This document shows positions 45,770-60,451 of a stretch of 64,000 bases of DNA, in pieces. The notes under the pieces were generated by a model that worked only from the letters and a program-made list of their open reading frames with translations, searched no databases and had not been told where the DNA came from. This stretch comes from a virus (lineage: Duplodnaviria > Caudoviricetes). How positions within the stretch are numbered: the first letter of the stretch is position 1; each line of letters opens with the position of its first letter. Where the stretch lies: IMG/VR virus record IMGVR_UViG_3300033551_000003, positions 815-64,814 of that record. One strand, given 5' to 3'. A program made the translations under genes and the position numbers.

Positions 45770-45849
45770 GTCGAAACCCTGGGAGGGGGCAATCCCCCTC
45801 CCTTGGTTTGCTGGAACCTGGTCCTACCAGCACTGATGAGACAGGACCA
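45770..45849 (+). ncRNA. Type II hammerhead ribozyme HH10 (GUU site, long stem III)
   Basis: CUGAUGA core; UGGUCCU/AGGACCA pseudoknot. Confidence 0.8.
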
Positions 45850-45864
45850 ATTTAGGAGTTTCAC

Positions 45865-46233: not shown

Positions 46234-46236
46234 ACC

Positions 46237-46302
46237 GTCGAAACCGGGGTACACCCCGGTCTGCTGGAACCTGGTCCTACCAGCACTGAGGAGACAGGAC
46301 CA
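46237..46302 (+). ncRNA. Type II hammerhead ribozyme HH11 (CUGAGGA)
   Basis: Full core and pseudoknot. Confidence 0.9.
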
Positions 46303-46573
46303 ATTTAGGGGATACACAATGATTCGTGATATCGTAACTGAACTGGCCGCGTTGTGCTACATCGTGGCCATCACTGGCGCCATCGTACTAACGGTGGTTG
46401 CCTTCCTCGGACAATAGAGGAGAAGACAAAATGGAAATTCGAATGAGCCCTGCGGACTTGGAGATGGTAATTGATGCACTGGCGTATGCACGTTGGTACT
46501 CTGCCACTAGCAAAGAGGAAGAGGACGGCTACTCCGTGCTTATCGAACATCTCAAGCTCCAACAGGACAACCA

Positions 46574-46639
46574 GTCGAAACCGGGGGAATAACCCCGGTC
46601 TGTCAGGAATGAGCGCCCTGGCACCGATGAGACAGCTCA
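46574..46639 (+). ncRNA. Type II hammerhead ribozyme HH12 (CCGAUGA variant)
   Basis: UGAGC/GCUCA pseudoknot. Confidence 0.8.
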
Positions 46640-46657
46640 AAATTAGGAGAATGAAAC

Positions 46658-47152
46658 ATGAATACCGCTGTACAAGACAGCACACCAAACACAATAGCCA
46701 CCATCACAAAGTGGTGGCAAGGCATAATCGAGGCGAGTACTGCGTGTCTGTTCGGCTGGGCGTTCAGATTCCCAGACGTGCAGGAAGCAGTACTCATTCG
46801 CATCAAGTGTGGGACACCGTTGGGCGAGGCCCTTGACAGCTTTGTCGAAGACAAGCTCGTCGACCTCGACGCTCGCGACATCAACGGGTTCGAGGAGTCC
46901 GTCGAAAAGATAGTCGATTCGGCTGTCGACGACGCTCTCAAGAACCTGGACGACGACATCGACACCGCCGTGGCAAACGCGCTCGGCGATATTGATGAGA
47001 AGGTCGAAGATGCTGTCGAGGAAGCATTCAATAAACTGGCTATCACCGATACGGTGACACGGATTATTGAAGGCATGGCCGCGAATAAGGACCACGACCT
47101 GGTCCGGCTGATCGCCCACCGTGTCTCTGAATTGTCGAAACCGGGGGAGTAA
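46658..47152 (+). CDS. Acidic helical-repeat protein
   Basis: Repeats (AVDDAL, AVANAL, AVEEAF); stop in HH13 stem III. Confidence 0.7.
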   Translation: MNTAVQDSTPNTIATITKWWQGIIEASTACLFGWAFRFPDVQEAVLIRIKCGTPLGEALDSFVEDKLVDLDARDINGFEESVEKIVDSAVDDALKNLDDDIDTAVANALGDIDEKVEDAVEEAFNKLAITDTVTRIIEGMAANKDHDLVRLIAHRVSELSKPGE

Positions 47153-47198
47153 CCCCGGTCTGCCAGAGATGAGCGCCTGGTACTGATGAGACTGCTCA
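47134..47198 (+). ncRNA. Type II hammerhead ribozyme HH13
   Basis: Full core. Confidence 0.88.
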
Positions 47199-47216
47199 AA
47201 TTAGGAGGTAAGACCA

Positions 47217-47648
47217 ATGGCAAAGACTAAGCCAGCTTACATCACTCGTAAGCTAACGGTCGCCGACGCGGTTAGCGAAGCCTACTCAATTCTAGAGGAG
47301 CTCGCTGGCGAAATGCGGGAGGCCTTTGATAACACTCCCGAGAGTCTTCAGCAGAGTGCCGTGGGCGAAGCCCGCGAAGCTGCTGCCGATGCTCTCGAGG
47401 GGTTGTCAGAGCCCAACGTACTTGATGAATTGGGCCGACTGGAGTTCGAATACACCGAACCCCCACCCAAGCGCAAGCAGTCCCGCCGCGATCGTCGTGA
47501 TCAAGCCACCGCCTTGTTGGGTGCCGTTATAGCGGTAGTTGACAATGTCGATGACGAGAACGCCGATGACGCCGTCGAGCTCCGCGATGAATTGGATGAC
47601 TTGACGTCAGAAGCAGATGCCGTCGAGTTTCCAGGCATGTACGGCTAA
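47217..47648 (+). CDS. Acidic helical phage protein
   Basis: DNTPESLQQS; C-terminal VEFPGMYG. Confidence 0.75.
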   Translation: MAKTKPAYITRKLTVADAVSEAYSILEELAGEMREAFDNTPESLQQSAVGEAREAAADALEGLSEPNVLDELGRLEFEYTEPPPKRKQSRRDRRDQATALLGAVIAVVDNVDDENADDAVELRDELDDLTSEADAVEFPGMYG

Positions 47649-47651
47649 CCA

Positions 47652-47719
47652 GTCGAAACCGGGGTAAGTCCCCCGGTCACCTGGAAACCGGTCCTACCAG
47701 GTCTGAGGAGACAGGACCG
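47652..47719 (+). ncRNA. Type II hammerhead ribozyme HH14 (CUGAGGA)
   Basis: Stem I ACCUGG/CCAGGU; CGGUCCU/AGGACCG pseudoknot. Confidence 0.88.
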
Positions 47720-47728
47720 ATTAGGAGA

Positions 47729-48241
47729 ATGAAAATGAAACTATGGACCGCCGGAGGCTGGCACAGAAAGCCAACCAACTGGCAAGAAGTCGGGATGCCA
47801 ATCCCAAATGAGGAACTGGAGGCTCTGCCCCAGTACACCTCCAAGGAATTGGGGATCGAGCGGCATATTTCTGCCGCTTTCAAGATCCCCGTAGAACATA
47901 ACTACTTCCTGGTCGCCCACGAGGGTGGCCTGTACGTGGTTAACACTGAGGGTGCTACGTACGCACGTTACGTGCGGTATGTGGGCACGGGTTTGCCGAT
48001 CGAGGGACTTAAGCACGAGTCCTTCCGGTCCGGCGACGATACCACCAAGTATGTCCGAGATGTTCTAAAGCAATCGGGGTACGATCCAGAAGAGATTATG
48101 GCGGCCTCGTTTGTTCACATGAACCAGACCGGCAAGGAAGTGCATATGATTGCCTTCCCCAACCCGGAGGACGAAGATTTATTCGATCACGGGTATGTCT
48201 ATATCTGGGAGGAAGATGGTCGCAAGCGCGCAGATTTCTAG
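47729..48241 (+). CDS. Hypothetical protein
   Basis: RBS after HH14. Confidence 0.7.
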   Translation: MKMKLWTAGGWHRKPTNWQEVGMPIPNEELEALPQYTSKELGIERHISAAFKIPVEHNYFLVAHEGGLYVVNTEGATYARYVRYVGTGLPIEGLKHESFRSGDDTTKYVRDVLKQSGYDPEEIMAASFVHMNQTGKEVHMIAFPNPEDEDLFDHGYVYIWEEDGRKRADF

Positions 48242-48252
48242 ACTTTCTTGAC

Positions 48253-48513
48253 CACGCCGACGTGCATAAGTAACCCTATCAACGCCAGCGTGTCAGAACT
48301 ATACAGAAGTCCAAGGAATTCTAGCGCGTCAATACACACCAGAAACCCAAACAGCCCGAGCGTGTCAGGACGTACCACAAAACCCGTGGAATGAGAGCGT
48401 GCCGTCTATACGAAGTAACCCTGAGTGGTTTAGTGCGCTAAGAGAGGGGAGCAATCCATGACACAGGAGCGCGCCGTTAGGAATAAGCAACCCAAACTTC
48501 AGTAGCGCGCCAA
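48253..48513 (+). ncRNA. TIGR array 3 (~7 units)
   Basis: AGCGYGYCA-N9-AG(T/A/C)AACCCA-N9 units; ends at HH15. Confidence 0.85.
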
Positions 48514-48520
48514 ACAAAAA

Positions 48521-48584
48521 GTCGAAACCGGGGTACGCCCCGGTCTGCTGGATTGAGCATTCCAGCACCGATGAGACTGCTCAA
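48521..48584 (+). ncRNA. Type II hammerhead ribozyme HH15 (CCGAUGA variant)
   Basis: UUGAGCA/UGCUCAA pseudoknot. Confidence 0.8.
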
Positions 48585-48598
48585 ATTAGGAGAATGAA

Positions 48599-49129
48599 AT
48601 GACAATAACTGGTAAAGCACCAGAACTAGCCAACCTCAATGATGAGGTAGACTTAAGAGATGCTACAATATTCTGCGACAGCGCGGCTGGGGTCTATATC
48701 CCGCAGCGCTTCGCACGAGAAGTGAGACGTGAGCTCGTTACCGGTGTGAGCAGCAAGGACTATGAAGTCCTTGAGGCCGGACCGGATCACGAGCACTACT
48801 GGGACGCCTGGGCAGACGTCCTGGATAACGCTTTGATTAACGACCCAGTCCGGGGCGAGTGCCACCTGCACCAAGACCAGGACCTTTGGGTCGTGCCCAC
48901 CGAGAATCGAAGGATCATGGGTTATTGGTTCCACCCGATGACCCAGGAGGACTGGGATGGTTTTGCCGGAGCAGACGCAGGAAGTTGGATACATCACTGC
49001 TCGGACGGCCGGACCATTCTGATCTACTCGCCGCAGTCCGGCCTGCTGTCTGAGATCGTTGTCAAGGATGACGGTCTCAGCGCAGAGATCCTATGGACGC
49101 CCCAACAGATAACCTCTCAAGGGCGGTGA
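48599..49129 (+). CDS. Hypothetical protein
   Basis: DSAAGVYIPQRF, GPDHEHYWDAW; RBS. Confidence 0.7.
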   Translation: MTITGKAPELANLNDEVDLRDATIFCDSAAGVYIPQRFAREVRRELVTGVSSKDYEVLEAGPDHEHYWDAWADVLDNALINDPVRGECHLHQDQDLWVVPTENRRIMGYWFHPMTQEDWDGFAGADAGSWIHHCSDGRTILIYSPQSGLLSEIVVKDDGLSAEILWTPQQITSQGR

Positions 49130-49194
49130 GTCGAAACCGGGATAAAACCCGGTCTGCCGGATTGAGCATTCCGGCACTGATGAGACTGCTCAAT
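49130..49194 (+). ncRNA. Type II hammerhead ribozyme HH16
   Basis: Full core and pseudoknot. Confidence 0.9.
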
Positions 49195-49208
49195 TTAGGA
49201 GACAAAAC

Positions 49209-49490
49209 ATGATGCAATTGAGAGTGACCTTAAACGGCACCGATCGCAACCCTTGGCATAGGTGGGGGTTAACGCAAAACCCGTTCCCCCAGCTGGGCAA
49301 GGCAGAGTACGACGCCCATTGCTTAAGGCTTCAGTCCTTAGGCGGGGACCCAATTCCCGACACCGATTACATTCGTAAGGTGTTGGAGGGTTGGAGCCCG
49401 GAGTTTGTTGAACTCTGCTGCCAACGCTTTAAGAAGGGTGCGATCGTACAGTTCCACGTGGCGTTTAACGAGTCGAAACTGGGGGTGTAG
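49209..49490 (+). CDS. Hypothetical protein
   Basis: RBS; stop in HH17 stem III. Confidence 0.7.
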   Translation: MMQLRVTLNGTDRNPWHRWGLTQNPFPQLGKAEYDAHCLRLQSLGGDPIPDTDYIRKVLEGWSPEFVELCCQRFKKGAIVQFHVAFNESKLGV

Positions 49491-49536
49491 CCCCCAGTCT
49501 GCCGGATTGAGCATTCCGGCACTGATGAGACTGCTC
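49472..49536 (+). ncRNA. Type II hammerhead ribozyme HH17
   Basis: Stem III CUGGGGG/CCCCCAG covaries. Confidence 0.9.
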
Positions 49537-49555
49537 CAACTTAGGAGATTAAAAC

Positions 49556-49777
49556 ATGACTGTTAAGGAGTTGATCGAACTGCTCCAACAGGAGGACCCC
49601 GAAGCTCAAGTCCACATCACCTACAACTACGGTGATTATTGGAGGACAATCGTTGCCCCTCGCGTTAACCACGTCGAGGAGGGCAGCGTGGCCTTTTCCA
49701 AATATCACAATATGCCAAAGGTGAGTGAAGGTGGGGACGAATCCCCAATTGAGATCGTGGTCCTACTGGGAGCATAG
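49556..49777 (+). CDS. Small phage protein (MTVKELIELL family)
   Basis: Typical N-terminus; RBS. Confidence 0.7.
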   Translation: MTVKELIELLQQEDPEAQVHITYNYGDYWRTIVAPRVNHVEEGSVAFSKYHNMPKVSEGGDESPIEIVVLLGA

Positions 49778-49791
49778 GAGGCTCCAAAGCC

Positions 49792-49962
49792 ATGGAAGTC
49801 AGAGAGCATACCTGCTTAACCTGCGAGCACCAATGGGTGAGCCCCGTGGTGTTCTCGCAGTATACGCAGAACCTGAGCGGTGAACGCACAGAGTTCTGCC
49901 CAAAATGCAACGGCCGGACCGTGTGGTCTGGCCCAGCCAAAACTGTCGAAACCGGGGATTAA
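49792..49962 (+). CDS. Small Zn-ribbon protein (56 aa)
   Basis: CLTC...CPKC; GGAGG RBS; stop in HH18 stem III. Confidence 0.55.
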   Translation: MEVREHTCLTCEHQWVSPVVFSQYTQNLSGERTEFCPKCNGRTVWSGPAKTVETGD

Positions 49963-50010
49963 CCCGGTCTGCTGGAACCCGGTCCTACCAGCACTGATGA
50001 GACAGGACCG
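49945..50010 (+). ncRNA. Type II hammerhead ribozyme HH18
   Basis: Full core and pseudoknot. Confidence 0.9.
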
Positions 50011-50019
50011 ATTAGGAGA

Positions 50020-50637
50020 ATGGAAATGAAAACAGTGAGATTAGGTTTTGATGTACGACTCGCATGCGCGCGGGCCTGGGAGCTCATTTGGGCTTCCAAG
50101 CTCGAGGCACGTGCCAAGGAGAAACATCCACGATGGGCAGGGGCGACGTACTACACCACTGCCAACGACATGGTCAATCAGGTACGAGCCTTCGCGTCAT
50201 GTCACGCCGAGGGCAAGCCCTGGACCGACAAGGTCGTGTACGGCAAGTGGTTTGGGTCTCCCGTAAGATTGCCCTTCAGACTGGAGACAGTCGTTCGCGA
50301 CTGGCTCTTCGAGCAGGCCAGAAACGGCAAGCTCGAGTATCACAATTTTGGACGGGGCCACATCAGTGGTGCCCGCTTCCGCCCGTACGGTGAGCCGATG
50401 GGGCCATCAGAGATAAAGACGATGGTCAACAATCTAAAGCAGCGTACCGATCCCAAACCCAAACCCAAGCATTATAGTAAGCAGGGGATACATGGTCGCC
50501 CGCTTTGCACCGCCCGTCAGCGCAGCGGGTTCTATAGTCGTCCGGACCCCCACGTTCGGACTACCAAGGACCTCCAAGAAGTGACGTGCCCGCGCTGCCA
50601 GAAGGCGCTGGCCTTAATCGCAGAAACCGGGAGGTAA
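50020..50637 (+). CDS. Hypothetical protein with C-terminal Zn-binding motif
   Basis: H...C...VTCPRC; stop in HH19 stem III. Confidence 0.7.
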   Translation: MEMKTVRLGFDVRLACARAWELIWASKLEARAKEKHPRWAGATYYTTANDMVNQVRAFASCHAEGKPWTDKVVYGKWFGSPVRLPFRLETVVRDWLFEQARNGKLEYHNFGRGHISGARFRPYGEPMGPSEIKTMVNNLKQRTDPKPKPKHYSKQGIHGRPLCTARQRSGFYSRPDPHVRTTKDLQEVTCPRCQKALALIAETGR

Positions 50638-50685
50638 TCCCGGTCTGCCGGATTGAGCATTCCGGCACTGATGAAGCTGCTCAAT
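50620..50685 (+). ncRNA. Type II hammerhead ribozyme HH19
   Basis: Core intact, stem II weak. Confidence 0.8.
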
Positions 50686-50700
50686 TTAGGAGAACCACAA

Positions 50701-50994
50701 ATGGCTAAAGCAAAGAAGAGATTCCCCGTGATCACCGAAGCGATCCGGGATCTATGTACCGACAGCGGCTGTTGCTTGGAGTTCCAAACCATAGTCCGCT
50801 GGCTACCACAACTTGCAAGAGTAGAGGCACAGCTGAAAAGGCTATCGCGTAAGCAGGACGGAACTGGCTTTTCCGAATTCAACCACTTTGTATTTGGTGA
50901 TGAGGAAGACCAGAAGCGTCTGCGCACCAAATACAAAATTCAGCTTGCCCACAAGTTCCTCAACGACGTGTTCCATGGCCGGTGGGTGGCATGA
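50701..50994 (+). CDS. Hypothetical protein
   Basis: RBS then ATG (MAKAKKRF). Confidence 0.65.
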   Translation: MAKAKKRFPVITEAIRDLCTDSGCCLEFQTIVRWLPQLARVEAQLKRLSRKQDGTGFSEFNHFVFGDEEDQKRLRTKYKIQLAHKFLNDVFHGRWVA

Positions 50995-51368
50995 AGCGAA
51001 CCAAGCTAGGCGTGGAAATCCCGGTCCAACGGGATCACCGCCGCAACACCATAAATAAACTGGCCAGAACCGAAGTGAGGGGCCAGGACAACCCCCCTAG
51101 CCCGAGCTACGGCCCGGGTTTTAGGCGGATGAAGGCGCGTTTGGGAGCCTCTAAGATGGAGGACATGCGCCAGGATACCATCGCGCAGCAATTCAAGAAG
51201 CGCGAGGAGGTGTCTGGCGAGTCCGTTCCCGAGCGTGACCGCTCATCCTACAAGGATTATCCAACCCCGCGCCAGCGCGCCGTACGCCGAATGGCTGAAG
51301 AAGCTATCGGCAAGGTGCTTGGTACGGTTGAGCCCCATACTGACAAAAAGTCGAAACGCCGCAAGTGA
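50991..51368 (+). CDS. Basic hypothetical protein
   Basis: ATGA coupling; stop in HH20 stem III. Confidence 0.6.
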   Translation: MKRTKLGVEIPVQRDHRRNTINKLARTEVRGQDNPPSPSYGPGFRRMKARLGASKMEDMRQDTIAQQFKKREEVSGESVPERDRSSYKDYPTPRQRAVRRMAEEAIGKVLGTVEPHTDKKSKRRK

Positions 51369-51417
51369 GCGGCGTCGCCTGGAACCCGGTCCTACCAGGC
51401 CTGACGCGACAGGACCG
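51350..51417 (+). ncRNA. Type II hammerhead ribozyme HH20 (CUGACGC; A9C, possibly impaired)
   Basis: Stems intact, core deviates. Confidence 0.65.
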
Positions 51418-51431
51418 ATTAGGAGACAAGC

Positions 51432-52007
51432 ATGACTCAAGAAGAGAAATTCAAACTACACATGTCCAAACTAGACGTACCGGAGGGCTTCTCCGGGGAG
51501 TTCCGGAGGGATATGCCGGAGTGTCTTCACACCGTGAATTACCTTCTCAAGAAGGAGGGCGTGGAGATAATGTTCGACATAACCGGCTCCGGCCACACCC
51601 GGTTCAAGGCCAACGGCGAATGGTACACCTTTGACAGGTTGGGAGTGGAGGATTCGTTCTACCACCTCCCGATGTACAAGGGTCAGAAGGTACCGAGCCT
51701 GAACGAAATCGTCGCCGAGCAGCTTGCGCGTGTCGAGAACCGCATCGCCTACCACAAGACGGCGGTGAAGGTGCCCGGTCTGCCGGGCACCTGGACGGTG
51801 GCACACGATAAGGTGCAGGAGTTGAAGGACCAGCTGAAGGCCAATGGCCATATTACCTTCACTCCGGCCGGTTTCGGAACCGGATACTGCGTCACCAGAA
51901 GGCGGCCGGCAGGCCCCCTGAAGTACGGGCGCAGTCGTGCCAAGCCGGAGCTCGAGGAGTTCCTGGAGTTCAGCCCCCTCTACGTCGAGAACATGGACTG
52001 CGACTGA
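51432..52007 (+). CDS. Hypothetical protein
   Basis: RBS after HH20. Confidence 0.7.
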   Translation: MTQEEKFKLHMSKLDVPEGFSGEFRRDMPECLHTVNYLLKKEGVEIMFDITGSGHTRFKANGEWYTFDRLGVEDSFYHLPMYKGQKVPSLNEIVAEQLARVENRIAYHKTAVKVPGLPGTWTVAHDKVQELKDQLKANGHITFTPAGFGTGYCVTRRRPAGPLKYGRSRAKPELEEFLEFSPLYVENMDCD

Positions 52008-52010
52008 AAA

Positions 52011-52073
52011 GTCGAAACCGGGGTACGCCCCGGTCTGCCAGAGATGAGCTACTGGCACTGATGAGATAGCTCA
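52011..52073 (+). ncRNA. Type II hammerhead ribozyme HH21
   Basis: UGAGCUA/UAGCUCA pseudoknot. Confidence 0.9.
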
Positions 52074-52088
52074 AATAGGAGAAACAAA

Positions 52089-52361
52089 ATGCCAAAGAAG
52101 AAGGAGAAAGACTACAGTATACCAAAACTCAATGATCCTCGCATAATTGGCTATTACCCCAGCCTCAATAAATTAAGTACCGAGGAGTTGGGAGTAATCA
52201 GATTAGACGAATCACAGAAATTCTATAGACGATTAGCAGCCGCCCAAATACGTGCAAAAAGACTGGGCGAGGACCCACGTAAGTGCATGTGGGGATTGGC
52301 CTGGACTGGCACGCCTGCCGAGCAGGCAGCGTTAGCCGATAGGCTGCAATGGAGCAAATAA
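52089..52361 (+). CDS. Hypothetical protein
   Basis: RBS after HH21. Confidence 0.7.
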   Translation: MPKKKEKDYSIPKLNDPRIIGYYPSLNKLSTEELGVIRLDESQKFYRRLAAAQIRAKRLGEDPRKCMWGLAWTGTPAEQAALADRLQWSK

Positions 52362-52363
52362 CC

Positions 52364-52427
52364 GTCGAAACCGGGAACCAACCCGGTCTGCTGGATTGAG
52401 CATTCCAGCACCGATGAGACTGCTCAA
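52364..52427 (+). ncRNA. Type II hammerhead ribozyme HH22 (CCGAUGA variant)
   Basis: Stems and pseudoknot intact. Confidence 0.8.
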
Positions 52428-52442
52428 CTTAGGAGAACTAAC

Positions 52443-52877
52443 ATGAGACAATTAGGTACAAAAGTTTATCTACTTAATCACCCAAAGCTGTCAATGGAAC
52501 TACAACACGGCAGCGAGGGGCCACAATATGACCCCTACTCCTTTCAGGAGATTATCGTCAGGACCCCACAGGGTCGTACGGTACTCCACGAGGGGTTGGG
52601 GTCATGGCTTAAGTTCAATGGCAAGGAGGTCAAGCGCCTACCTGGGCAGGACTATGACGCCTACGAGCGTATGCTAAGGGACGAAGCGTTCCCTAGCTGC
52701 ACGGGCTTCACCGTCACCCAGTTACACCGTATCGCGCGCAAGCTACGCTCGCGTTGCGCTCAGTGTGGTAGCCGAGACTTTCATTATGAGTCCGGCTTCC
52801 CAGGCGAGACCTTTGAGGTTTGCAGTCGGTGCAACCATATCGTTTCCACCAGCTTCAACATCTCTGCCATAGAATGA
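52443..52877 (+). CDS. Hypothetical protein with C-terminal Zn ribbon
   Basis: CAQC...CSRC. Confidence 0.7.
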   Translation: MRQLGTKVYLLNHPKLSMELQHGSEGPQYDPYSFQEIIVRTPQGRTVLHEGLGSWLKFNGKEVKRLPGQDYDAYERMLRDEAFPSCTGFTVTQLHRIARKLRSRCAQCGSRDFHYESGFPGETFEVCSRCNHIVSTSFNISAIE

Positions 52878-52880
52878 AGA

Positions 52881-52946
52881 GTCGAAACCGGGCTCAAACC
52901 CGGTCTGCTGGAAACCGGTCCTACCAGCACTGATGAGACAGGACCG
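52881..52946 (+). ncRNA. Type II hammerhead ribozyme HH23
   Basis: Full core and pseudoknot. Confidence 0.9.
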
Positions 52947-52961
52947 ATTAGGAGATAGAAA

Positions 52962-53240
52962 ATGGCAAAAGAGGTAAGATACTATACTGCAGGGGCCGCC
53001 ATAAAGGCGGTTCTACTGCAAGTTGACTTATACTCACTGGAGCAGTGTAACCCTAACGAGGTTGGGGACTACCTGCAGTTCGAGTACGACGACTATGGAA
53101 AATGCTATACCGTAACTGAGCAAATCGAAGGTATGGCCTTCGCAACAAGTCACGCGTATGGACCTGAATTCGACAGGAAGTTCGTCGTACGCTCTATTGT
53201 TGGTGCCCTTATGGCAGAATACATGGGCATCTACAACTGA
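52962..53240 (+). CDS. Hypothetical protein
   Basis: RBS after HH23. Confidence 0.7.
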   Translation: MAKEVRYYTAGAAIKAVLLQVDLYSLEQCNPNEVGDYLQFEYDDYGKCYTVTEQIEGMAFATSHAYGPEFDRKFVVRSIVGALMAEYMGIYN

Positions 53241-53306
53241 GTCGAAACCGGGCTGAGTCCCGGTCGTCGGGAACCTGATCCTACCCGGCTTGAAGAGACA
53301 GGATCA
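53241..53306 (+). ncRNA. Type II hammerhead ribozyme HH24 (UUGAAGA variant)
   Basis: Close relative of HH9. Confidence 0.75.
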
Positions 53307-53329
53307 TAAATCTTAGGAGAATCAAAATA

Positions 53330-54214
53330 ATGGCAAATAACAATCCACTAAAGGACGTGGCCGTTATAGCGTCTGTAAGTATCAGTCGCTGGACCGGCCG
53401 CAAACTCGATCGGGAAGTTACCGACGAGGTAAACGAGCGTTACGGTGCCGAGATGGATGCCGGACGCTACAACAAGCAACTGATCGCGAAGAAAGCCTTC
53501 GCGGATATCAACAAGATCACCAGGGAAGCGCGCACGCTCCACAAGATCATGACGCAGCCCTGGGTAGGTGACAAGCGTCTGCTCGCCAATAAGCTGATTG
53601 AGAAGTTCACGAAGCGGATGGGCGAGTTGAGGCTGGGCTTCGAAGATGCCGCAGACGAGTTCGACACGAAGTACACAACCTTCATGGAGAACTCGAGGAC
53701 GTCCCGCTTGAAGAAGATGTTCAAGGCCGAGGACTATCCGGATCCGCGCATCGTTCGCAAGAAGTTCTCGTTCCACTGCGCCATCGACTCCATCACCGAT
53801 AACGAAGACCTGCGCCCGAGTGCGTTGCAGGAGTTGTCGGATGATTGGTTGAAGGCGGCCGAGCGGGACTTCAAGGCGGGCCTCGAAGACGCCATGCGCG
53901 ACCCAGTCGAGCGGATCATCGCGGTAGCCACCAAGATGTCCAATCGACTGAAGGAATACAAACCGGCCGTCAACGGCAGCATGGCCGAGAACACGTTCCG
54001 CGACTCCCTGGTCAACAATATCAGGGACCTCGCGGATATGTTGCCGGCGTTCAACCTCACGGGTGATAAGAAGCTCGAGGCTCTCATTGATCGCGTGTCC
54101 CGCGACCTGTGTGAGATCGACGCTGACATCCTGCGGGAGAACGACGGGACTCGTGCCAAGGTTGCCAAGGCCGCCGATGATATCCTCAAGCAGGCCCACG
54201 CCTTAATGGCTTGA
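53330..54214 (+). CDS. DUF3150-like helical phage protein
   Basis: SVSISRWTGRKLD, AGRYNKQL, EDYP, FRDSLVNN, FNLTGD; recalled as often co-occurring with AAA/VWA genes. Confidence 0.6.
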   Translation: MANNNPLKDVAVIASVSISRWTGRKLDREVTDEVNERYGAEMDAGRYNKQLIAKKAFADINKITREARTLHKIMTQPWVGDKRLLANKLIEKFTKRMGELRLGFEDAADEFDTKYTTFMENSRTSRLKKMFKAEDYPDPRIVRKKFSFHCAIDSITDNEDLRPSALQELSDDWLKAAERDFKAGLEDAMRDPVERIIAVATKMSNRLKEYKPAVNGSMAENTFRDSLVNNIRDLADMLPAFNLTGDKKLEALIDRVSRDLCEIDADILRENDGTRAKVAKAADDILKQAHALMA

Positions 54215-54218
54215 GGCT

Positions 54219-54290
54219 GTCGAAACCAAAGGGGGGTATACTCCCTTTGGTCGGTGGGAACTGACCTACCCACCCTGATGAGACAGGTCA
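54219..54290 (+). ncRNA. Type II hammerhead ribozyme HH25
   Basis: Stem III CCAAAGGG/CCCUUUGG; UGACCU/AGGUCA pseudoknot. Confidence 0.9.
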
Positions 54291-54304
54291 TTTAGGAGAT
54301 GTAA

Positions 54305-54664
54305 ATGGCTGGAAACCCCAACAGCGCCCGTGCTCGCTTCAAAGCCTATTTGAAGGAGCATGGAGAGGAGGCCGCCCTAAAGTTCGGGGCGGAAATAGGG
54401 ATGCAACCTGCCCGCATAAAGCGGCTTATTCGCGTATTCACCGGCCAGGCCCCGATCAAGCAGAAACCCTCCACCGTGGAGGTGACTGTGGAACCCGTTA
54501 GGTTTGGTCGGTTTAAGCCGCAGGTTTACCTATTTGGAGACAAGACCTTGGTTGCTCGGTATGTAGCTAAAGGCCCCGAGCAGAGTGAGGTTAAGTTCCC
54601 GAATGGTAACGTGCAGACGGTTGACAATGATTGGCTAACGCCTTTCGAAACCGAGGAGGAGTAA
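54305..54664 (+). CDS. Hypothetical protein (C-terminal SH3/KOW-like strands)
   Basis: RBS; stop in HH26 stem III. Confidence 0.65.
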   Translation: MAGNPNSARARFKAYLKEHGEEAALKFGAEIGMQPARIKRLIRVFTGQAPIKQKPSTVEVTVEPVRFGRFKPQVYLFGDKTLVARYVAKGPEQSEVKFPNGNVQTVDNDWLTPFETEEE

Positions 54665-54715
54665 CTCCTCGGTCACTGGGGTGCTGATCCGACCCCGGTC
54701 TGACGAGATAGGATC
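54644..54715 (+). ncRNA. Type II hammerhead ribozyme HH26 (CUGACGA), 5' of tasA
   Basis: Stem III CCGAGGAG/CUCCUCGG; GAUCC/GGAUC pseudoknot. Confidence 0.85.
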
Positions 54716-54733
54716 CTTAGGAGACAAAGAAAG

Positions 54734-55750
54734 ATGGCTACAATAGACGATGTTGCTGCCTTGCGCCTGATGTGCAAGGGAGCGTATGACCTGCAAAAGC
54801 TGAGAATGCAATGCGGGTTGAGACTTTGGGCGAACTTTAACGCCAAGCTCAAGCAGCAGGCCAACCCCGCTGCCGAAGACACAGAAACCGATGCCGACGA
54901 GATGTCGGAGGAGGCCGAGAAGCTGATCGCTCAGCTAAAGGCCTCCTACGTGCGCCTTACCGATGGTATCGCGCGCAACCGCACACTCCCGGCCCAGAAG
55001 GGCTTCAATGGAGACGAGTTGATCTCGACCTTCACGGAGCTCACACTGGTGGACCAATATATCCAACTGGAGAAGCAGGAGGCCCGCCACTTTCGCCAGA
55101 TGACCCCGCTGCTGGAAGAGATACCGATCTACTCGACGTATCTCAAGCAGGAGCGTGGCATCGGCCCCGCGATGGCGTCCGTCCTTATAAGCTACCTCGA
55201 CCCCGCCAAAGCCGACCACATTTCCGCCTTCTGGCGGTATGCTGGCCTGGACGTGGGGCCGGATGGCATGGGCCGGTCGCGCCGCGAGGAGCACCTGGTC
55301 GAGCGAACCTACATCGACAAGAACGGACAGCAGAAGACGCGAATGGGCGTCACCTACAATCCGTTCCTGAAGACCAAGCTCGCCGGAGTGCTGGCGTCGT
55401 CCTTTCTGCGGCAAAAGTCGCGGTGGAGTGATGTGTACGGAAACTACAAGCATCGCATCACCACCGACCCGAACCGCACGAAGGTTACGGTCACGGAATG
55501 GAAGCGTATGCACAAGGCAGGCGGCATGGACGCCGTCCGTGGGGTTTGGACCCCCGGGCGTATCCACAACGCCTCGTCTCGGTATATGCTGAAGATGTTC
55601 CTGGCCGAACTCTGGACGAAGTGGCGCACGTTGGAAGGACTGCCCCTGACGCCCACGTATCACGAGGCCGTCATGGGTCACGTCCACACGCCATCCGCGC
55701 AGGAGCAGCGCCGTAGCGCCGAGGGTGATGGGGCCACAACCCACACCTAA
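54734..55750 (+). CDS. tasA: TIGR-associated Nop-domain protein (TasA-like, no RuvC or HNH)
   Basis: N-terminal YDLQKLRMQ coiled coil; IS110/Nop motifs RGIGPAMASVLI, SAFWRYAGL, YNPFLKTKL, RIHNASSRYMLKMFLAELW..WR.LEGL; directly followed by a TIGR array; no DEDD RuvC domain. Confidence 0.88.
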   Translation: MATIDDVAALRLMCKGAYDLQKLRMQCGLRLWANFNAKLKQQANPAAEDTETDADEMSEEAEKLIAQLKASYVRLTDGIARNRTLPAQKGFNGDELISTFTELTLVDQYIQLEKQEARHFRQMTPLLEEIPIYSTYLKQERGIGPAMASVLISYLDPAKADHISAFWRYAGLDVGPDGMGRSRREEHLVERTYIDKNGQQKTRMGVTYNPFLKTKLAGVLASSFLRQKSRWSDVYGNYKHRITTDPNRTKVTVTEWKRMHKAGGMDAVRGVWTPGRIHNASSRYMLKMFLAELWTKWRTLEGLPLTPTYHEAVMGHVHTPSAQEQRRSAEGDGATTHT

Positions 55751-55758
55751 GGCAAAAC

Positions 55759-56068
55759 GGCTCGCCACGGGAGCAAAGTAACCCATCGCACCTCAGCGAG
55801 CCATATGTCGCATGTACTCCACAACTGGTTAGCGTGCCGATACAAGCACTAGCAACCCAGAGGATGCTAGCGTGCCAAAGCCACTTAGTAGCTCAGGCAC
55901 TTTCAGCGTGTCATCTAGGTCCAGCAACCCAGGTGAGATCAGCGTGCCGTCAGGAGGAAAGTAACCCAAGATCGAAGAGCGCGCCAGCCTCTCACAGTAA
56001 CCCGTGGCACGATAGCGTGCTAGGAATTGGGAGTAACCCAGATTTCCTCAGCGCGCCAGACCACCAGT
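55759..56068 (+). ncRNA. TIGR array 4a (~8 units) directly downstream of tasA
   Basis: e.g. AGCGTGTCA-TCTAGGTCC-AGCAACCCA-GGTGAGATC; AGCGCGCCA-GCCTCTCAC-AGTAACCCG-TGGCACGAT. Confidence 0.92.
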
Positions 56069-56070
56069 GT

Positions 56071-56137
56071 GTCGAAACCGGAGGTACGCCTCCGGTCACC
56101 GGGAACCTGATCCTACCCGGTATGATTAGACAGGATC
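56071..56137 (+). ncRNA. Type II hammerhead ribozyme HH27 (AUGAUUA, A3-U8) inside the TIGR array, no RBS
   Basis: Stem III CCGGAG/CUCCGG, stem I ACCGGG/CCCGGU, GAUCCU/AGGAUC pseudoknot. Confidence 0.8.
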
Positions 56138-56151
56138 TGGCCTACCCGTTT

Positions 56152-56754
56152 TAGAAACCCAATGGCCAAAAGCGCACCGTGAAAGGATAGTAAACCCTGT
56201 CCGTCTAGTGCGCCAAAAGATTTTAGCAACCCATTAAGAAACAGCGCACCGATAGGAGTTAGTAACCCAACGTCCTTACAGTGCGCCGTTAGGAATAAGC
56301 AACCCAAACTTCAGTAGCGCGCCATATTGGATTAGTAATCCAAACCCTCGTAGCGCGCCAACAAAACGAAGTAATCCATGTCACGCCAGCGTGCCAAAGG
56401 AAACTAGCAACCCATTGCGCAAGCCAGCGTGCCAGTCTGTGATAGTAACCCACAACAGAAAAGTGTACCGTGAAAGCAGAAGCTAAACCCAATGACGCAT
56501 AGTGGGCCATGAGTACGCAGTAACCCATGTGTACAAAGCTTGTCATAGAAAACAAGAAACCCGTCGCGCGACAGCGCGCCGTAGAACACGAGAAATCCGT
56601 CAATCGACAGCGTGCCAGAAGTACGAAAGTAAACCAAAAAAGCATAGCGCGCCGAGAAGTCTTAGTTACCCACGGAAACGGAGCGCGCCAAAATTTCACA
56701 GTAACCCACAACAGAAAAGCGCGCCATAGCCATGTAGTAACCCACTAGCTCATA
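56152..56754 (+). ncRNA. TIGR array 4b (~16 units)
   Basis: 36-nt dual-repeat units continuing to HH28. Confidence 0.92.
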
Positions 56755-56756
56755 GT

Positions 56757-56823
56757 GTCGAAACCGGGGTACGCCCCGGTCGTCGGGAACCCGATCCTAC
56801 CCGACCTGATGAAGACAGGATCG
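56757..56823 (+). ncRNA. Type II hammerhead ribozyme HH28
   Basis: GUCGGG/CCCGAC stem I; CGAUCCU/AGGAUCG pseudoknot. Confidence 0.88.
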
Positions 56824-56853
56824 CAACTTAGGAGATAAACAAGGAAAACCACA

Positions 56854-57900
56854 ATGGCATCAATCAACATGGTTGAAGCAAGACAGATGCTGATAGACAT
56901 GTACGAGGCCAACGAGCCTTTCATGTTTCTCGGCAAGCCCGGAATGGGTAAGACCTCTATGGTCGAGGACGTCTGTCACTGCCTCGGCATCGGCTTCATC
57001 GACTTCCGCCTGACCCTTAAGGATCCGGTGGAGGTTGGTGGTATGCGCGTGCCGGACGTTAAGACGGGGATGCTCCGGCATTTTGTGCCGGAGGATATAC
57101 CCGATGTAAAGCGCCACGGTCCCAAGGGGATCTTCTTGTTCGACGAAATCAATGTAGTTTCTATGCTACTCCAGTCCACGGCTTATGGAATCATCCAGGA
57201 GCGCCGGATTGGGTCGTACAAGATTGATCTTGGTTGGGTACCGATGGCGTCGGGCAACCTCGTCACCGATCGGGCAGCGGCCCAACGCCTATCCACGGCG
57301 CTGGCAAACCGCTTCAATGTCCAGGTCGTCGAGCCACACCTGCCGTCATGGCTGAAGCAATACGGGTCTGAGCACGTGGATTCGCGGGGAACTGCGTTTC
57401 TGCGGTTTAGGCCAGCGTTGTTCAGCTGCATGCCGGGCCAGGTCATAACGATCGACGACAAGACCCAGACCCCGGTCTCCAAGGACGAGACGGCCTTTCC
57501 GTCGGCCCGCTCCTGGACCAAGGCGTTCAAGTTCATCGATAAGCCCCCGACCTATCGGCGCAAGATATTCGCTGGCTATGTTGGCGAAGTCCCGGCCGAT
57601 GAGTTCGAGGCCTATTGGCGAATCATGGAGAACGCCGTGTCCGTCGAGCAGGTTATCGCCGACCCGAAGGGTGCGCCAATACCCAAGGAGGAGGATGCCG
57701 GCACCTACTATGCGGTGACCGGCATGCTGTCGAGGGCGATGGACTTGAAGAACATCAACCCGATCATGACCTACGTCGGCCGTATGCACAAGGACTACCA
57801 AGTCGTTTGTGTCACCGATGCGATGCGGCGTGATGAAGCGCTGCGTAACACGCGGGCGTACGGCAACTGGGCGGTCAACAACCAGGACGTCATGATGTGA
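56854..57900 (+). CDS. MoxR-like AAA+ ATPase
   Basis: GKPGMGKTS, FLFDEIN, ASGN, ALANRF, PSARSW. Confidence 0.88.
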   Translation: MASINMVEARQMLIDMYEANEPFMFLGKPGMGKTSMVEDVCHCLGIGFIDFRLTLKDPVEVGGMRVPDVKTGMLRHFVPEDIPDVKRHGPKGIFLFDEINVVSMLLQSTAYGIIQERRIGSYKIDLGWVPMASGNLVTDRAAAQRLSTALANRFNVQVVEPHLPSWLKQYGSEHVDSRGTAFLRFRPALFSCMPGQVITIDDKTQTPVSKDETAFPSARSWTKAFKFIDKPPTYRRKIFAGYVGEVPADEFEAYWRIMENAVSVEQVIADPKGAPIPKEEDAGTYYAVTGMLSRAMDLKNINPIMTYVGRMHKDYQVVCVTDAMRRDEALRNTRAYGNWAVNNQDVMM

Positions 57901-57915
57901 CAAATCCCTGACCAT

Positions 57916-57980
57916 GTCGAAACCGGGGTACGCCCCGGTCGCCTGGAACCCGGTCCTACCAGGCCTGATGAGACAGGACC
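57916..57980 (+). ncRNA. Type II hammerhead ribozyme HH29
   Basis: Full core and pseudoknot. Confidence 0.9.
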
Positions 57981-57996
57981 AATTAGGAGAACCAAT

Positions 57997-58170
57997 ATGC
58001 CGACACTTCGCTTCAACGATGGCGTTAGCATCAACACGGATGGACACCTTCGCATCATTCACCTGAAGGACGGCTACTACGTGGTGGGCGAGGGCTTGTG
58101 CATGCCCGTCGACACCCGGGCCGAGGGCGAGGAGTTCATCGCCGAGGAGAAGAAGCGCAACGCCAAGTGA
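57997..58170 (+). CDS. Small hypothetical protein (57 aa)
   Basis: MPTLRFNDGVSINTDG...; RBS after HH29. Confidence 0.65.
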   Translation: MPTLRFNDGVSINTDGHLRIIHLKDGYYVVGEGLCMPVDTRAEGEEFIAEEKKRNAK

Positions 58171-58177
58171 AACGTAT

Positions 58178-58251
58178 GTCGAAACTAGGGGGCCGAAAGG
58201 CCTCCTAGTCGGTGAGGAACTGACCGGCCTCGCCCTGATGAAGACAGGTCA
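58178..58251 (+). ncRNA. Type II hammerhead ribozyme HH30
   Basis: Stem III CUAGGGGGCC-GAAA-GGCCUCCUAG; UGACC/GGUCA pseudoknot. Confidence 0.88.
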
Positions 58252-58265
58252 TTTAGGAGAATAGA

Positions 58266-59771
58266 ATGCAGACAATCGAGATAAACAACCCCTTATTGGC
58301 ACGAGTAGTACGCGCGAGAGCGTTCCTACTCCGTAGCCACCCGTTCTTTGGAAACCTGGCCATGCGGCTAAGGATCCGGGAACACAATGAGCTTAGAGTC
58401 AAAACCATGGCAACGGACGGGACATTCCTGTACTGGTGCCGTGAGTTCTTGGAGAAAGTTAGCGACAGCATGCTTTTGTTTGCTGTCGCCCACGAGGTAC
58501 TCCACTGCGCGCTGTGCCATCATACCCGTCGTGGTACGAGGGACCCGCTGCTGTGGAATATCGCGTGCGATCACGTCGTTAACCTGCTGCTAAGGGCCGC
58601 AGGGTTCCGTCCACCGGACTGGGCCTACTGCGACCCCAAGTATACTGGTCTGAATGCGGAACAAGTTTACCGCCTTCTGTACGAGGAACGTAAGCAGCAG
58701 CAACAGCAACAACCGGAGCCAACGCCCCAACCTGGTCAGGACGACCAGCAGGCGACCGGCTCCGGCGACCAAGACCCCGATCAGGAGGCCGACCCCAAGG
58801 GCGGCTCCCCCGGGGATGACGATGAAGAAGGTGACGAAGGAGAAGAGCAATGCGGTTCCAACGGTGGAGCTTCATCCGACCAGGATTCCAAGTCTGGTTC
58901 GGACAGCGAGGATGGGACGTCCGGTACCTCAACAGAGGACGATGCGCCCCAGGATGCTGGCTCTTCTTCCGAGGGCGGGTCTGCGGGGAGTCCCACATCC
59001 GACTCTTCGGATGGGACGCCTGGCCGATCTGGTCTCCCCCAATCCCATGGCGATCCTGGCGGATGCGGCGAAGTTCTAGACGCCGCGCCGTCCTATGATG
59101 ACACCAAATTGTCAGAAGCCGAGGGTGAGTGGCAGACCTACGTCCGTCAAGCTATCAACGTTGCCCGCAAAGCGGGGGAAGGCCGGTTACCGGGCTTCCT
59201 CGAGGAAGTAATCGACACGTTGAACGACCCCCGCACCGATTGGCGTCAAGCCCTTCGGGAGTGGGTGGACTACTCTAATACCAAGGACTACACCTGGACG
59301 ACACCGAACCGCCGTATGTTCGCGTTGGGGTACATAACCCCCGGCATGGTCAGCGATGGACTTAACAAGGTGGCGTTTATCATCGACTCCTCGGGGTCTG
59401 TTCACACCGAGTGGTTGAAGAAGTTCGGCGGTGAAGCCCAAGCCGCCCTCGACGATGGGGCAATCGACAACGCAATTGTAATCTTTGCCGATGATGGCAT
59501 CCACCGTATTGAAGAATACAGTAAGGGTGACATCATCGACTGGACTGTCCAGGGGCGCGGCGGAACTAGCTTCAGCCCCGCCCTGGGTTGGCTGATGGAG
59601 AACGTTCCCGATCTGTCGGGGGCGGTCTACTTTACCGACCTGGACAGCACGGACTTTGGACCGCAGCCGACCTTCCCACTTCTGTGGGCGGCCTATGGTC
59701 CCGATCCGAATGAACTGCAGAGGTTAATTGCGCGGTTGCCGTTCGGCGAGTGTATCGAACTGGTCGACTAA
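58266..59771 (+). CDS. DUF2201-type metallopeptidase-VWA protein
   Basis: PFFG, TMATDG, AHEVLH, WNIACD, acidic linker, IDSSGS MIDAS, GRGGTSF, YFTD. Confidence 0.88.
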   Translation: MQTIEINNPLLARVVRARAFLLRSHPFFGNLAMRLRIREHNELRVKTMATDGTFLYWCREFLEKVSDSMLLFAVAHEVLHCALCHHTRRGTRDPLLWNIACDHVVNLLLRAAGFRPPDWAYCDPKYTGLNAEQVYRLLYEERKQQQQQQPEPTPQPGQDDQQATGSGDQDPDQEADPKGGSPGDDDEEGDEGEEQCGSNGGASSDQDSKSGSDSEDGTSGTSTEDDAPQDAGSSSEGGSAGSPTSDSSDGTPGRSGLPQSHGDPGGCGEVLDAAPSYDDTKLSEAEGEWQTYVRQAINVARKAGEGRLPGFLEEVIDTLNDPRTDWRQALREWVDYSNTKDYTWTTPNRRMFALGYITPGMVSDGLNKVAFIIDSSGSVHTEWLKKFGGEAQAALDDGAIDNAIVIFADDGIHRIEEYSKGDIIDWTVQGRGGTSFSPALGWLMENVPDLSGAVYFTDLDSTDFGPQPTFPLLWAAYGPDPNELQRLIARLPFGECIELVD

Positions 59772-59778
59772 TGGGTGA

Positions 59779-59843
59779 GTCGAAACCGGGGTACGCCCCG
59801 GTCTGCTGGAACCTGGTCCTACCAGCACTGAGGAGACAGGACC
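59779..59843 (+). ncRNA. Type II hammerhead ribozyme HH31 (CUGAGGA)
   Basis: Near-identical to HH11. Confidence 0.9.
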
Positions 59844-59858
59844 GATTAGGAGAATGAA

Positions 59859-60140
59859 ATGAACAAGAGCAAAGACAAGGAGCGGGTAGCTTGGATGCAC
59901 GCCGCCATCGAACTAAACGCCAAGCGTGAAGGCTGGTCGTTATTCGAGTGCGATGACGGTCGCCTACGCATCCAACGCCTGGATTTTCCATACGACTCTA
60001 CGGGACGCCCCATCGATCCACTATTTGACAGCGACGAGTCCGCCGTGCAATTCGTCAAGGACCTCGCTGATACAGGGTCGTCCTTTCACCAAGTTACGCT
60101 TCGTCTGCACGGGATGAAGGTGTCGAAATCTGGAGAGTAA
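59859..60140 (+). CDS. Hypothetical protein
   Basis: AKREGWSLFEC..IQRLD..FDSDESAVQFV; RBS. Confidence 0.7.
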   Translation: MNKSKDKERVAWMHAAIELNAKREGWSLFECDDGRLRIQRLDFPYDSTGRPIDPLFDSDESAVQFVKDLADTGSSFHQVTLRLHGMKVSKSGE

Positions 60141-60142
60141 AA

Positions 60143-60364
60143 ATGCACACGTACCGACATTCCTTCGATGCGTTAGAAGAGTTCCCAAGTAAATGGGAAA
60201 CCGGCCTTTGGATTACCCACAAGGACGGTAATTATTGGCGTACGGTCGCCAGCTTTGACGCCGAGTGGAAGGCAGCGTTGTACGCCTCCTTCCTCAACGG
60301 CGGTAAGCCACCCATCGGTGTGCTGAACGAGCTCTTCGCAGGCGCCAATATCAGCTTCGAATGA
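60143..60364 (+). CDS. Small phage protein
   Basis: AALYASFLNGG motif; GGAG RBS. Confidence 0.6.
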   Translation: MHTYRHSFDALEEFPSKWETGLWITHKDGNYWRTVASFDAEWKAALYASFLNGGKPPIGVLNELFAGANISFE

Positions 60365-60366
60365 AA

Positions 60367-60434
60367 GTCGAAACCGGGGGTGTAACCCCGGTCACGGATG
60401 GGGTGGTTCCCCACCGTCTGATGAAGACAAACCA
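60367..60434 (+). ncRNA. Type II hammerhead ribozyme HH32
   Basis: Core CUGAUGA; UGGUU/AACCA pseudoknot. Confidence 0.82.
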
Positions 60435-60451
60435 ACTTAGGAGAATGAAAA

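Follow-up and report, generated by a model that had tools for sequence, protein, structure and literature searches.

For the hammerhead ribozymes that flank prophage genes, a role in dividing long transcripts into RNAs of the length of a gene has been proposed (Perreault et al. 2011, PMC3088659), and the role of bacterial hammerheads was called largely elusive in a 2019 review (PMC6765202). Dual-repeat TIGR-TasA systems such as that of FpTasA combine a Nop-domain protein of phage origin, which has no nuclease domain, with guide-RNA arrays (Faure et al. 2025, PMC12045711). Our subject is a phage locus in which these two kinds of element meet. In the virus contig IMGVR_UViG_3300033551_000003 a tasA gene is followed by a TIGR array that one hammerhead (HH27) splits into the sub-arrays 4a and 4b and that another (HH28) closes. 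The window, by which we mean the whole stretch of 64,000 nucleotides (nt) that was analysed, covers nearly all of this 64.8-kb IMG/VR virus record.

The hammerheads of the window are like the phage and prophage hammerheads of Perreault et al. (2011, PMC3088659; RF02276) in being of type II, stem II being open and loop I forming a pseudoknot with the 3' tail, and like the clusters described there they keep one orientation, lie between the genes of a phage operon and can be proposed to cut its transcript. They differ in lying far more densely (32 in 18.6 kb), in that three copies border guide-RNA arrays and in that HH27 has no gene behind it. The TIGR-TasA part of the locus shares with the FpTasA systems the type of protein and the phage origin, the alternating edge and loop repeats, the two spacers of ~9 nt, the 36-nt period and the placement of same-strand arrays up- or downstream of tasA. 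What sets it apart is the array split by a hammerhead, and the presence of six sub-arrays at four places and on both strands with a single tasA.

In synthetic CRISPR cassettes a guide is placed between a 5' hammerhead and a 3' hepatitis delta virus (HDV) ribozyme. As is predicted for the window, flanking self-cleaving ribozymes free a guide precursor, but such a cassette holds one guide whose final ends are made by the ribozymes, whereas the window would yield a 16-unit precursor that still needs unit cutting. HDV-like 'theta' ribozymes lie beside tRNA genes in gut phages and have been proposed to trim the tRNA. There too a phage self-cleaving ribozyme adjoins a non-coding RNA gene, but the ribozyme class and the RNA are different and the association is conserved in many phages, whereas the case in the window is sporadic.

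Our reading of the locus is that the hammerheads serve as a general punctuation of the cistrons of one plus-strand unit (41.8-60.4 kb) and bound the TIGR arrays incidentally, and we hold it with somewhat better than even confidence. Hammerheads were sought with our own structural descriptor (GAAA, stem III closed and with U at its end, any residue but G, stem I closed, a core of 7 nt, and stem II) and with R1, a custom covariance model built from 28 window copies, HH27 and HH28 among them, which finds 32 copies, four of these outside its seed. All 32 lie on the plus strand within 41795-60438, a density far above the at most 8 per locus seen in the other phage loci that were fetched. A start codon follows 31 of them within 45 nt and opens a frame of 32-501 codons, and the ribosome-binding site (RBS) in between is AGGAG in 30 cases and AGGGG in one, in a near-identical UUAGGAG context. 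In 22 of the 31 inter-hammerhead intervals the open reading frame (ORF) runs up to or into the next hammerhead, with gaps of -52 to +13 nt, and 29 of the 32 copies flank ordinary genes. Across 41-60.9 kb sigma-70-like promoters were not found above shuffle level, although the promoter types of the host may differ, and none was found on the plus strand within 54-57 kb. The promoter scan is consistent with one long transcript without being proof of it.

The array borders fit into this pattern with one exception. The preliminary description of the locus had placed HH27 (there 56071-56137) in the middle of the tasA array, and model and descriptor together now set it at 56069-56141, between 4a and 4b. 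It had also been singled out there as the sole hammerhead without an RBS or ORF behind it, which is borne out by the comparison with the 31 gene-linked copies: no gene follows HH27, the best frame having 6 codons and no AGGAG. HH28 does come right after 4b, beginning (at 56755) 9 nt past the last loop-type repeat and being followed by an AGGAG and an ATPase gene, while HH15 closes array 3, starting (at 48519) 7 nt past its last repeat. HH26, described as opening the tasA message, ends 14 nt before the tasA ATG (AGGAG at 54719, ATG at 54734). Cleavage after C17 would then release three RNAs that carry arrays, namely 867 nt with ORF 47729-48241 and array 3, 1423 nt with tasA and 4a (54675-56097), and a non-coding RNA of 684 nt (56098-56781) with array 4b alone. 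The last two are the products that had been expected, with a length of ~690 nt for the second of them.

The structure of HH27 can be read directly from the DNA. The descriptor gives a three-way junction with stems I and III closed and stem II open, stems II, III and I having 4, 8 and 6 base pairs (bp); the sequence leads from the 5' strand of stem II through GAAA, stem III, cleavage site, stem I and core to the 3' strand of stem II. The pseudoknot between GAUCC in loop I and GGAUC in the 3' tail after stem II is fully paired, the cleavage triplet GUC at 56095-56097 fits the NUH rule, and the minimum-energy fold of 56030-56190 contains both stem III and stem I. As for the reality of the arrangement, the stretch is present in 22 DNA sequencing runs including soil metagenomes (no RNA run was found to contain it), and Logan contigs of two other soil runs span 4a, HH27 and 4b (X12 over 54200-56312, X13 over 55483-56324), with no differences listed within HH27. 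Because they bridge these three elements, they speak against an assembly error brought about by the large number of hammerhead copies; the uncovered parts of contigs X11, X13 and X14 carry no meaning. Two apparent variants were set aside. A contig that joins 56324 to 56757 with AACAAAAA between them was ruled out as a variant of the locus, being cross-mapping of the junction of array 3 and HH15, with which a 42-nt unit is shared, and a loose contig end at 56137 turned out to be the sequence downstream of HH9.

As a family the hammerheads are well supported. With up to 2 core mismatches the descriptor finds 29 window copies, and with the canonical core CUGANGA and a threshold on the stem sum it finds 22, against 0 in mononucleotide shuffles of 2.5 Mb. 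The Rfam model RF02276 finds plus-strand copies only, 7 in the window when its gathering score is applied and 18 when E ≤ 10 is allowed, and in a search of the virus record itself it gives HH26 26.1 bits (record coordinates 55457-55531). Over the 28 copies in the seed of R1, 88 cells have changed on both sides of a pair, compared with 26.8 in shuffles, and none of 500 shuffles reaches 88. Slid controls also stay far below the observed value. The signal lies in stems I-III and in the pseudoknot of loop I and 3' tail, in which both partners have changed in 3 of 5 pairs.

As to the activity of HH27 itself, its core reads AUGAUUA against the consensus CUGAUGA, so that A3 and U8 replace C3 and G8. 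Eleven of the 13 conserved core positions (C3 U4 G5 A6 N7 G8 A9, G12 A13 A14, A15.1-U16.1) match, with 3 and 8 deviating. In the active hammerhead fold, core positions 3 and 8 form a Watson-Crick pair. When the descriptor leaves these two positions free, all 96 matches in 2.5 Mb are pairable there (C-G in 90, U-A in 4, U-G in 1 and A-U in 1, the last being HH27); no unpaired combination occurs among the 96, and shuffles give no matches. Within the window the pair is C-G in 29 copies, U-A in HH9 (45324-45394), U.G in HH24 (53239-53309) and A-U in HH27, and both HH9 and HH24 sit at ordinary gene junctions. Compared with HH28, moreover, two pairs of stem I have changed in HH27 in a compensated way, and stem III has gained one pair. 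Przybilski and Hammann reportedly found in 2007 that any Watson-Crick pair at 3-8 kept cleavage, and that some hammerheads preferred a pyrimidine at 3 and a purine at 8, which is the reverse of HH27. Natural covariation to U3-A8 is reported, with activity of covarying variants in vitro (Perreault et al. 2011, PMC3088659). A natural A3-U8 hammerhead was not mentioned in the literature searched, nor in the accessible portion of Perreault et al. (2011, PMC3088659). Because its stems and pseudoknot are fully paired, its changes compensated and its A3 and U8 pairable, HH27 looks maintained and not decayed. We think it probable, if well short of certain, that it still cleaves, possibly more slowly than the neighbouring hammerheads.

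The cutting of the precursor into single guides would not call for ribozymes. SpTasH cuts pre-tigRNA itself by means of catalytic Y289 and H296 (PMC13421893), and the TIGRFinder preprint has the Y/H dyad cut within the edge repeat in dual-repeat systems and describes TasA proteins as RNA-guided repressors (bioRxiv 2026.09.09.750476). In the case of TaTasR, processing depends on the protein without being catalysed by it directly (Faure et al. 2025, PMC12045711). The release of single units has thus been ascribed either to Tas alone, through the Y/H dyad, or to Tas acting with an RNase of the host. Y309 and H316 of the window TasA align with Y289 and H296 of SpTasH in a phmmer alignment, and all 32 relatives in the TasA alignment have the tyrosine at 309. 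Since the residues with which SpTasH cuts pre-tigRNA are thus present in the window TasA, guides could be released without any need of ribozymes, processing by the window TasA being predicted only. In phmmer searches against the PDB this protein matches TasH 21kl (E 1.2e-8, residues 140-337) and 9mty (E 2.9e-8). It also matches PHROG 4285 (E 3.4e-35), and 595 homologues are found at E ≤ 0.001 in a large protein collection. No HNH or RuvC nuclease domain was found in it (Pfam at E ≤ 0.1 gives a weak Transposase_20 only), which as a sequence-based result is weak evidence. A tasParB gene was not recognised beside tasA, the two upstream ORFs having no match in Pfam or PHROG.

How specific the coupling of ribozymes and TIGR arrays is can be judged within the phage and among its relatives. 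The three minus-strand arrays of the same phage are an internal control, and R1 finds a hammerhead at none of them. On the plus strand array 3 follows ORF 47729-48241, and 4a follows tasA, with no hammerhead in between, so that two of the three arrays would stay joined to coding RNA. The preliminary description had proposed that hammerheads be looked for in other TIGR loci. A single-protein TasA query gave no match in IMG/VR and an alignment-based query was needed; an alignment of 32 homologues fetched 80 IMG/VR, 80 metagenome and 4 genome loci, and 3 relatives of the TasA of one of these, L267, were added. Since duplicates were kept, and some of the IMG/VR and JGI loci are one and the same contig, the number of independent loci is at most the resulting 167. 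Type II hammerheads were sought in all loci with R1 and the descriptor, and all Rfam families in the loci of 23 relatives.

Two of the 167 loci, L267 and L272, which are near-identical contigs of one phage type, carry a hammerhead. There too it stands at a junction of array and gene, and the remaining 165 have no hammerhead. R1 finds 0 hammerheads in the 80 IMG/VR loci (955,516 bases) and 2 in the 80 metagenome loci, and the descriptor agrees in both. On the whole records of the 40 closest loci RF02276 gives 1 match, ~13 kb from tasA. By Rfam there is no ribozyme in 14 loci at the gathering score and none in L274-L276 at E ≤ 0.1, and at that threshold L277-L280 yield tRNAs and no ribozyme. In the relatives tasA is followed by one continuous array. 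Arrays with the motifs of the window adjoin tasA in 60 of the 80 IMG/VR loci, some with 71-107 uninterrupted repeats; the detector uses the window repeat motifs with up to 2 mismatches, and the remaining 20 may have diverged repeats. Seen from the side of the ribozymes, none of 113 hammerhead-rich or candidate phage loci (73 stretches with the junction pattern and 40 others) has a TIGR array, and in L081-L120 and L146 there are up to 8 hammerheads per phage locus without TIGR. Because 31 of 32 hammerheads are linked to an RBS, 0 of 3 minus-strand arrays have one and 2 of 167 relatives have one, the hammerheads appear to follow the gene block rather than the arrays, and we would assign them mostly to the block and not to TIGR.

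The picture we favour would then be as follows. A polycistronic RNA would be cut after GUC ~45 nt before each RBS, and the TIGR arrays that lie inside the plus-strand unit would be bounded by ribozymes like its other cistrons, giving the three array-bearing products named above. HH27 would be an extra copy without a cistron, probably active by way of the compensated A3-U8 pair. TasA, through Y309 and H316 and perhaps together with host RNases, would release the 36-nt guides, and the ribozymes would set the outer ends of the pre-tigRNA only; tigRNA biogenesis would not depend on them, nor would they belong to it in general. Positions, folds, covariation and distribution among relatives are what is observed in this picture; single-unit transcription, cleavage and processing by TasA are what we infer.

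Several points weigh against it. HH27 and HH28 are both missed by RF02276, also when E ≤ 10 is allowed in a search of 1.2 kb, and the R1 scores of 66.5 bits for HH27 and 75.9 bits for HH28 are circular, both being in the seed; the case for the two rests on the direct reading of their structure. Activity of an A3-U8 core in the context of a type II pseudoknot is a prediction, and the single transcript is an assumption on our part. HH27 breaks the rule of RBS-linked punctuation and yet looks conserved, a hint that its role may be connected with the array. In L267 (8469-8545) and L272 (9072-9148) a type II hammerhead (RF02276, 62.5 bits) closes the downstream array and is followed by an RBS, and the 7-8 kb before it are free of hammerheads; the contigs end at this hammerhead.

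Ribozyme-assisted biogenesis of pre-tigRNA, as the preliminary description had suggested, would in its strict form mean that HH27, HH28 and HH15 were selected for guide yield or stability, or for the ratio of guide to TasA. Both ends of the 684-nt RNA of 4b would then be capped, the 5'-OH end by the hairpin of stem I and the 2',3'-cyclic-phosphate end by that of stem III. That HH27 keeps its pairings and a compensated core without any cistron would find an explanation here, as would the hammerhead at the 3' end of all three plus-strand arrays and the same array-hammerhead-RBS junction in the independent lineage of L267 and L272, where no further hammerhead lies in the 7-8 kb on the upstream side. 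The hammerheads of both lineages begin 7-9 nt past the last repeat, where the next repeat would be expected, but ordinary ORF ends are abutted just as tightly, and we dropped the in-register placement as evidence for this reason. What remains of the suggestion is the layout and the predicted products. The coupling fails at the minus-strand arrays and in nearly all relatives, L274 included, whose arrays run uninterrupted for up to 107 repeats; arrays 3 and 4a remain joined to the preceding ORF, and the cutting into units is attributed to Tas, self-processing of arrays having been reported (PMC13421893; bioRxiv 2026.09.09.750476). We therefore regard dedicated biogenesis as clearly unlikely. The wider claim that HH27 and HH28 form a selected natural cassette of ribozyme, guide array and ribozyme, possibly with a circular product, and that L267 and L272 are a second independent invention of it, seems to us highly unlikely as a whole. 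Circularisation of 4b is conceivable because the stem II strands of HH27 and HH28 are identical. Were the cassette real, a stand-alone pre-tigRNA with hairpin ends would be freed from the tasA message, which would uncouple guide supply from translation of the effector, and the ends of the 684-nt RNA could rebuild a hammerhead and ligate into a circular, exonuclease-resistant pre-tigRNA.

HH27 could also be a nearly or fully inactive relic of a former gene junction or of array recombination, in which case 4a and 4b would be one pre-tigRNA on the tasA mRNA. Its two deviating core positions are among the most conserved ones, C3-G8 being kept in 90 of the 96 descriptor matches, its purine at 3 and pyrimidine at 8 run counter to the preference reported for some hammerheads, Rfam does not match it, recombination between arrays is real (a 42-nt unit is common to arrays 3 and 4b), and relatives have a continuous array behind tasA. 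But the two substitutions together are just what a Watson-Crick pair at 3-8 needs, the rest of the core is unchanged, and no pairing is lost in the stems or the pseudoknot, where differences from the paralogues are compensated. A 3-8 pair that does not form is seen in none of the 96 hammerheads, and covarying 3-8 variants are active in vitro (PMC3088659), so that we hold a relic to be unlikely. It is very improbable, finally, that the hammerheads are mainly insulators of the 5' untranslated region (UTR) or translation elements for the downstream RBS, with no meaning for the processing of TIGR RNA. The synthetic part RiboJ, a 5' UTR insulator, is the model for such a function. That 31 of 32 copies end a few nt before the near-identical UUAGGAG would suit it, and ribozymes have been proposed to act in translation initiation in RNA viruses (2026 NAR paper, PMC13725137). 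Insulation is itself based on cleavage, however, so the arrays would still be cut out, and HH27 has no RBS to insulate. The punctuation of cistrons thus remains the reading we prefer, and on the comparison made here the coupling of ribozymes and TIGR looks incidental and is seen in two lineages only.

The junction of array, hammerhead and gene has, judged by its distribution, arisen in two distant TasA lineages and is sporadic. The TasA of L267 and L272 is 44% identical to that of the window, arrays lie on both sides of their tasA, and the hammerhead begins 8 nt past the last loop-type repeat. L274, which holds the closest relative of the L267 TasA (68% identity), has no hammerhead, and the stem III pattern of the L267 hammerhead has no match in IMG/VR. 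Both contigs stop a few bases after the hammerhead and RBS, and the break in assembly may come from an element that is repeated in that phage. Two other leads were given up. The 73 IMG/VR stretches with an edge repeat 5-30 nt before a hammerhead start are chance or unrelated, the detector finding no array in them, and a supposed resemblance between the first bases of a hammerhead (AGUC or AGUG) and the beginning of a repeat does not count as evidence, AGUC being the usual stem II strand at ordinary junctions too. A tRNA lies near tasA in 3 of the 4 genome-derived loci, ~1.7-3.7 kb downstream of it in L277 (6547-6630) and L278 (8503-8586) and in L279 (5703-5780) ~220 nt upstream of where tasA matches.

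The arrays themselves (Table 1) are regular. The region 55759-56754 is an array of 36-nt period in which two 9-nt repeats, one of the AGTAACCCA type and one of the AGCGYGCCA type, alternate with spacers of ~9 nt, and start-to-start distances of the repeats are 36, 72 or 73 nt. We take the AGCGYGCC type to be the edge repeat, since the arrays begin and finish with it. Sub-array 4a ends in a complete AGCGCGCCA repeat and 7 nt, and a degenerate edge-like repeat may stand at 56135-56143 ahead of 4b. A 42-nt stretch, one whole tigRNA unit and the last of array 3, is identical between array 3 (48474-48515) and array 4b (56283-56324), and a 20-nt half-unit is present twice in 4b (56444, 56700). These identities indicate that tigRNA units are copied between and within arrays. 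Both arrays in 10187-12110 lead directly into an RBS and ATG. The minus-strand arrays apparently lie inside other gene blocks.

Several further features of the gene block may be recorded. Each hammerhead stops a few nt 5' of its UUAGGAG RBS, and in this the hammerheads of the window resemble natural 5' UTR insulators. Downstream of array 4b a gene for a DUF2201 metallopeptidase/VWA protein (58266-59771, plus strand; Pfam E 3e-43 and 3e-18) follows, and both it and the ATPase gene (56854-57900) have a hammerhead of their own in front. Two paralogous elements on the plus strand, 42988-43052 and 43350-43414, stand at gene junctions that have no hammerhead, and both are followed by the same AAUUUAGGAG RBS and an ATG. 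The Rfam family HDV-F-prausnitzii matches them below its gathering score of 44 (34.3 and 28.1 bits, respectively), and they may be a second ribozyme class with the same job as the hammerheads. Core position 4 is C (CCGAUGA) in four hammerheads (41795, 46572, 48519 and 52362), which lie at normal gene junctions except for HH15 at 48519, and the hammerhead at 51348 has C at core position 9 (CUGACGC).

Table 1. Location of the ribozymes, TIGR arrays and genes discussed in the text (positions of the window).
Feature	Position	Strand	Description
tasA	54734..55750	+	338-amino-acid Tas protein, Nop-type C-terminal domain
HH26	54642..54719	+	type II; core CUGACGA; predicted cleavage 54674/54675; R1 59.8 bits
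HH27	56069..56141	+	type II, between sub-arrays 4a and 4b; predicted cleavage 56097/56098
HH28	56755..56826	+	type II; core CUGAUGA with an extra A before stem II; predicted cleavage 56781/56782
HH15	48519..48587	+	closes array 3; core CCGAUGA; predicted cleavage 48545/48546; RBS and ORF 48599-49129 after it
HH14	47650..47722	+	precedes ORF 47729-48241; predicted cleavage 47678/47679 (descriptor, R1)
TIGR sub-array 4a	55759..56065	+	~8.5 units of 36 nt; begins 9 nt past the tasA stop
TIGR sub-array 4b	56153..56754	+	~16.7 units
TIGR array 3	48251..48518	+	directly behind ORF 47729-48241
Two TIGR arrays	10187..12110 (~12110-11330, 11070-10187)	-	separated by 81-codon ORF 11320-11075
TIGR array 2	37700..38030	-	runs straight into RBS and ATG
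Gene block with hammerheads	41795..60438	+	all 32 window hammerheads, 18.6 kb, ~1 per cistron
AAA/MoxR-like ATPase gene	56854..57900	+	first cistron after array 4b; PHROG 1297 E 2.4e-63; weak Pfam AAA

The preliminary description knew of no account of ribozyme-assisted pre-tigRNA biogenesis for TIGR-Tas, and our search agrees: no paper linking ribozymes or hammerheads to TIGR-Tas was found in the literature searched, supplementary tables lying outside the search. The word 'ribozyme' is absent from the papers found there that use 'tigRNA'. One preprint has both TIGR and hammerhead and treats them separately, and a Cas12m circuit preprint and a perspective in Neural Regen Res contain both 'TIGR-Tas' and 'ribozyme'. 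The layout is thus an unreported variant of the phage hammerhead punctuation, here bounding guide arrays, and a new pathway of biogenesis is not supported. It appears to be the first natural case of self-cleaving ribozymes that bound an RNA-guide array, a layout that engineers devised for CRISPR guides.

For the TIGR field, in which the transcription of the arrays and the start and end points of pre-tigRNA are open questions, the locus has the merit of predicting exact ends for a precursor, namely 56098 and 56781. With 32 copies, one per cistron, it is also a compact test bed for the little-understood role of hammerheads in bacteria and phages, and with C-G, U-A, U.G and A-U together in one genome it is a test bed for the natural variation of the 3-8 pair.

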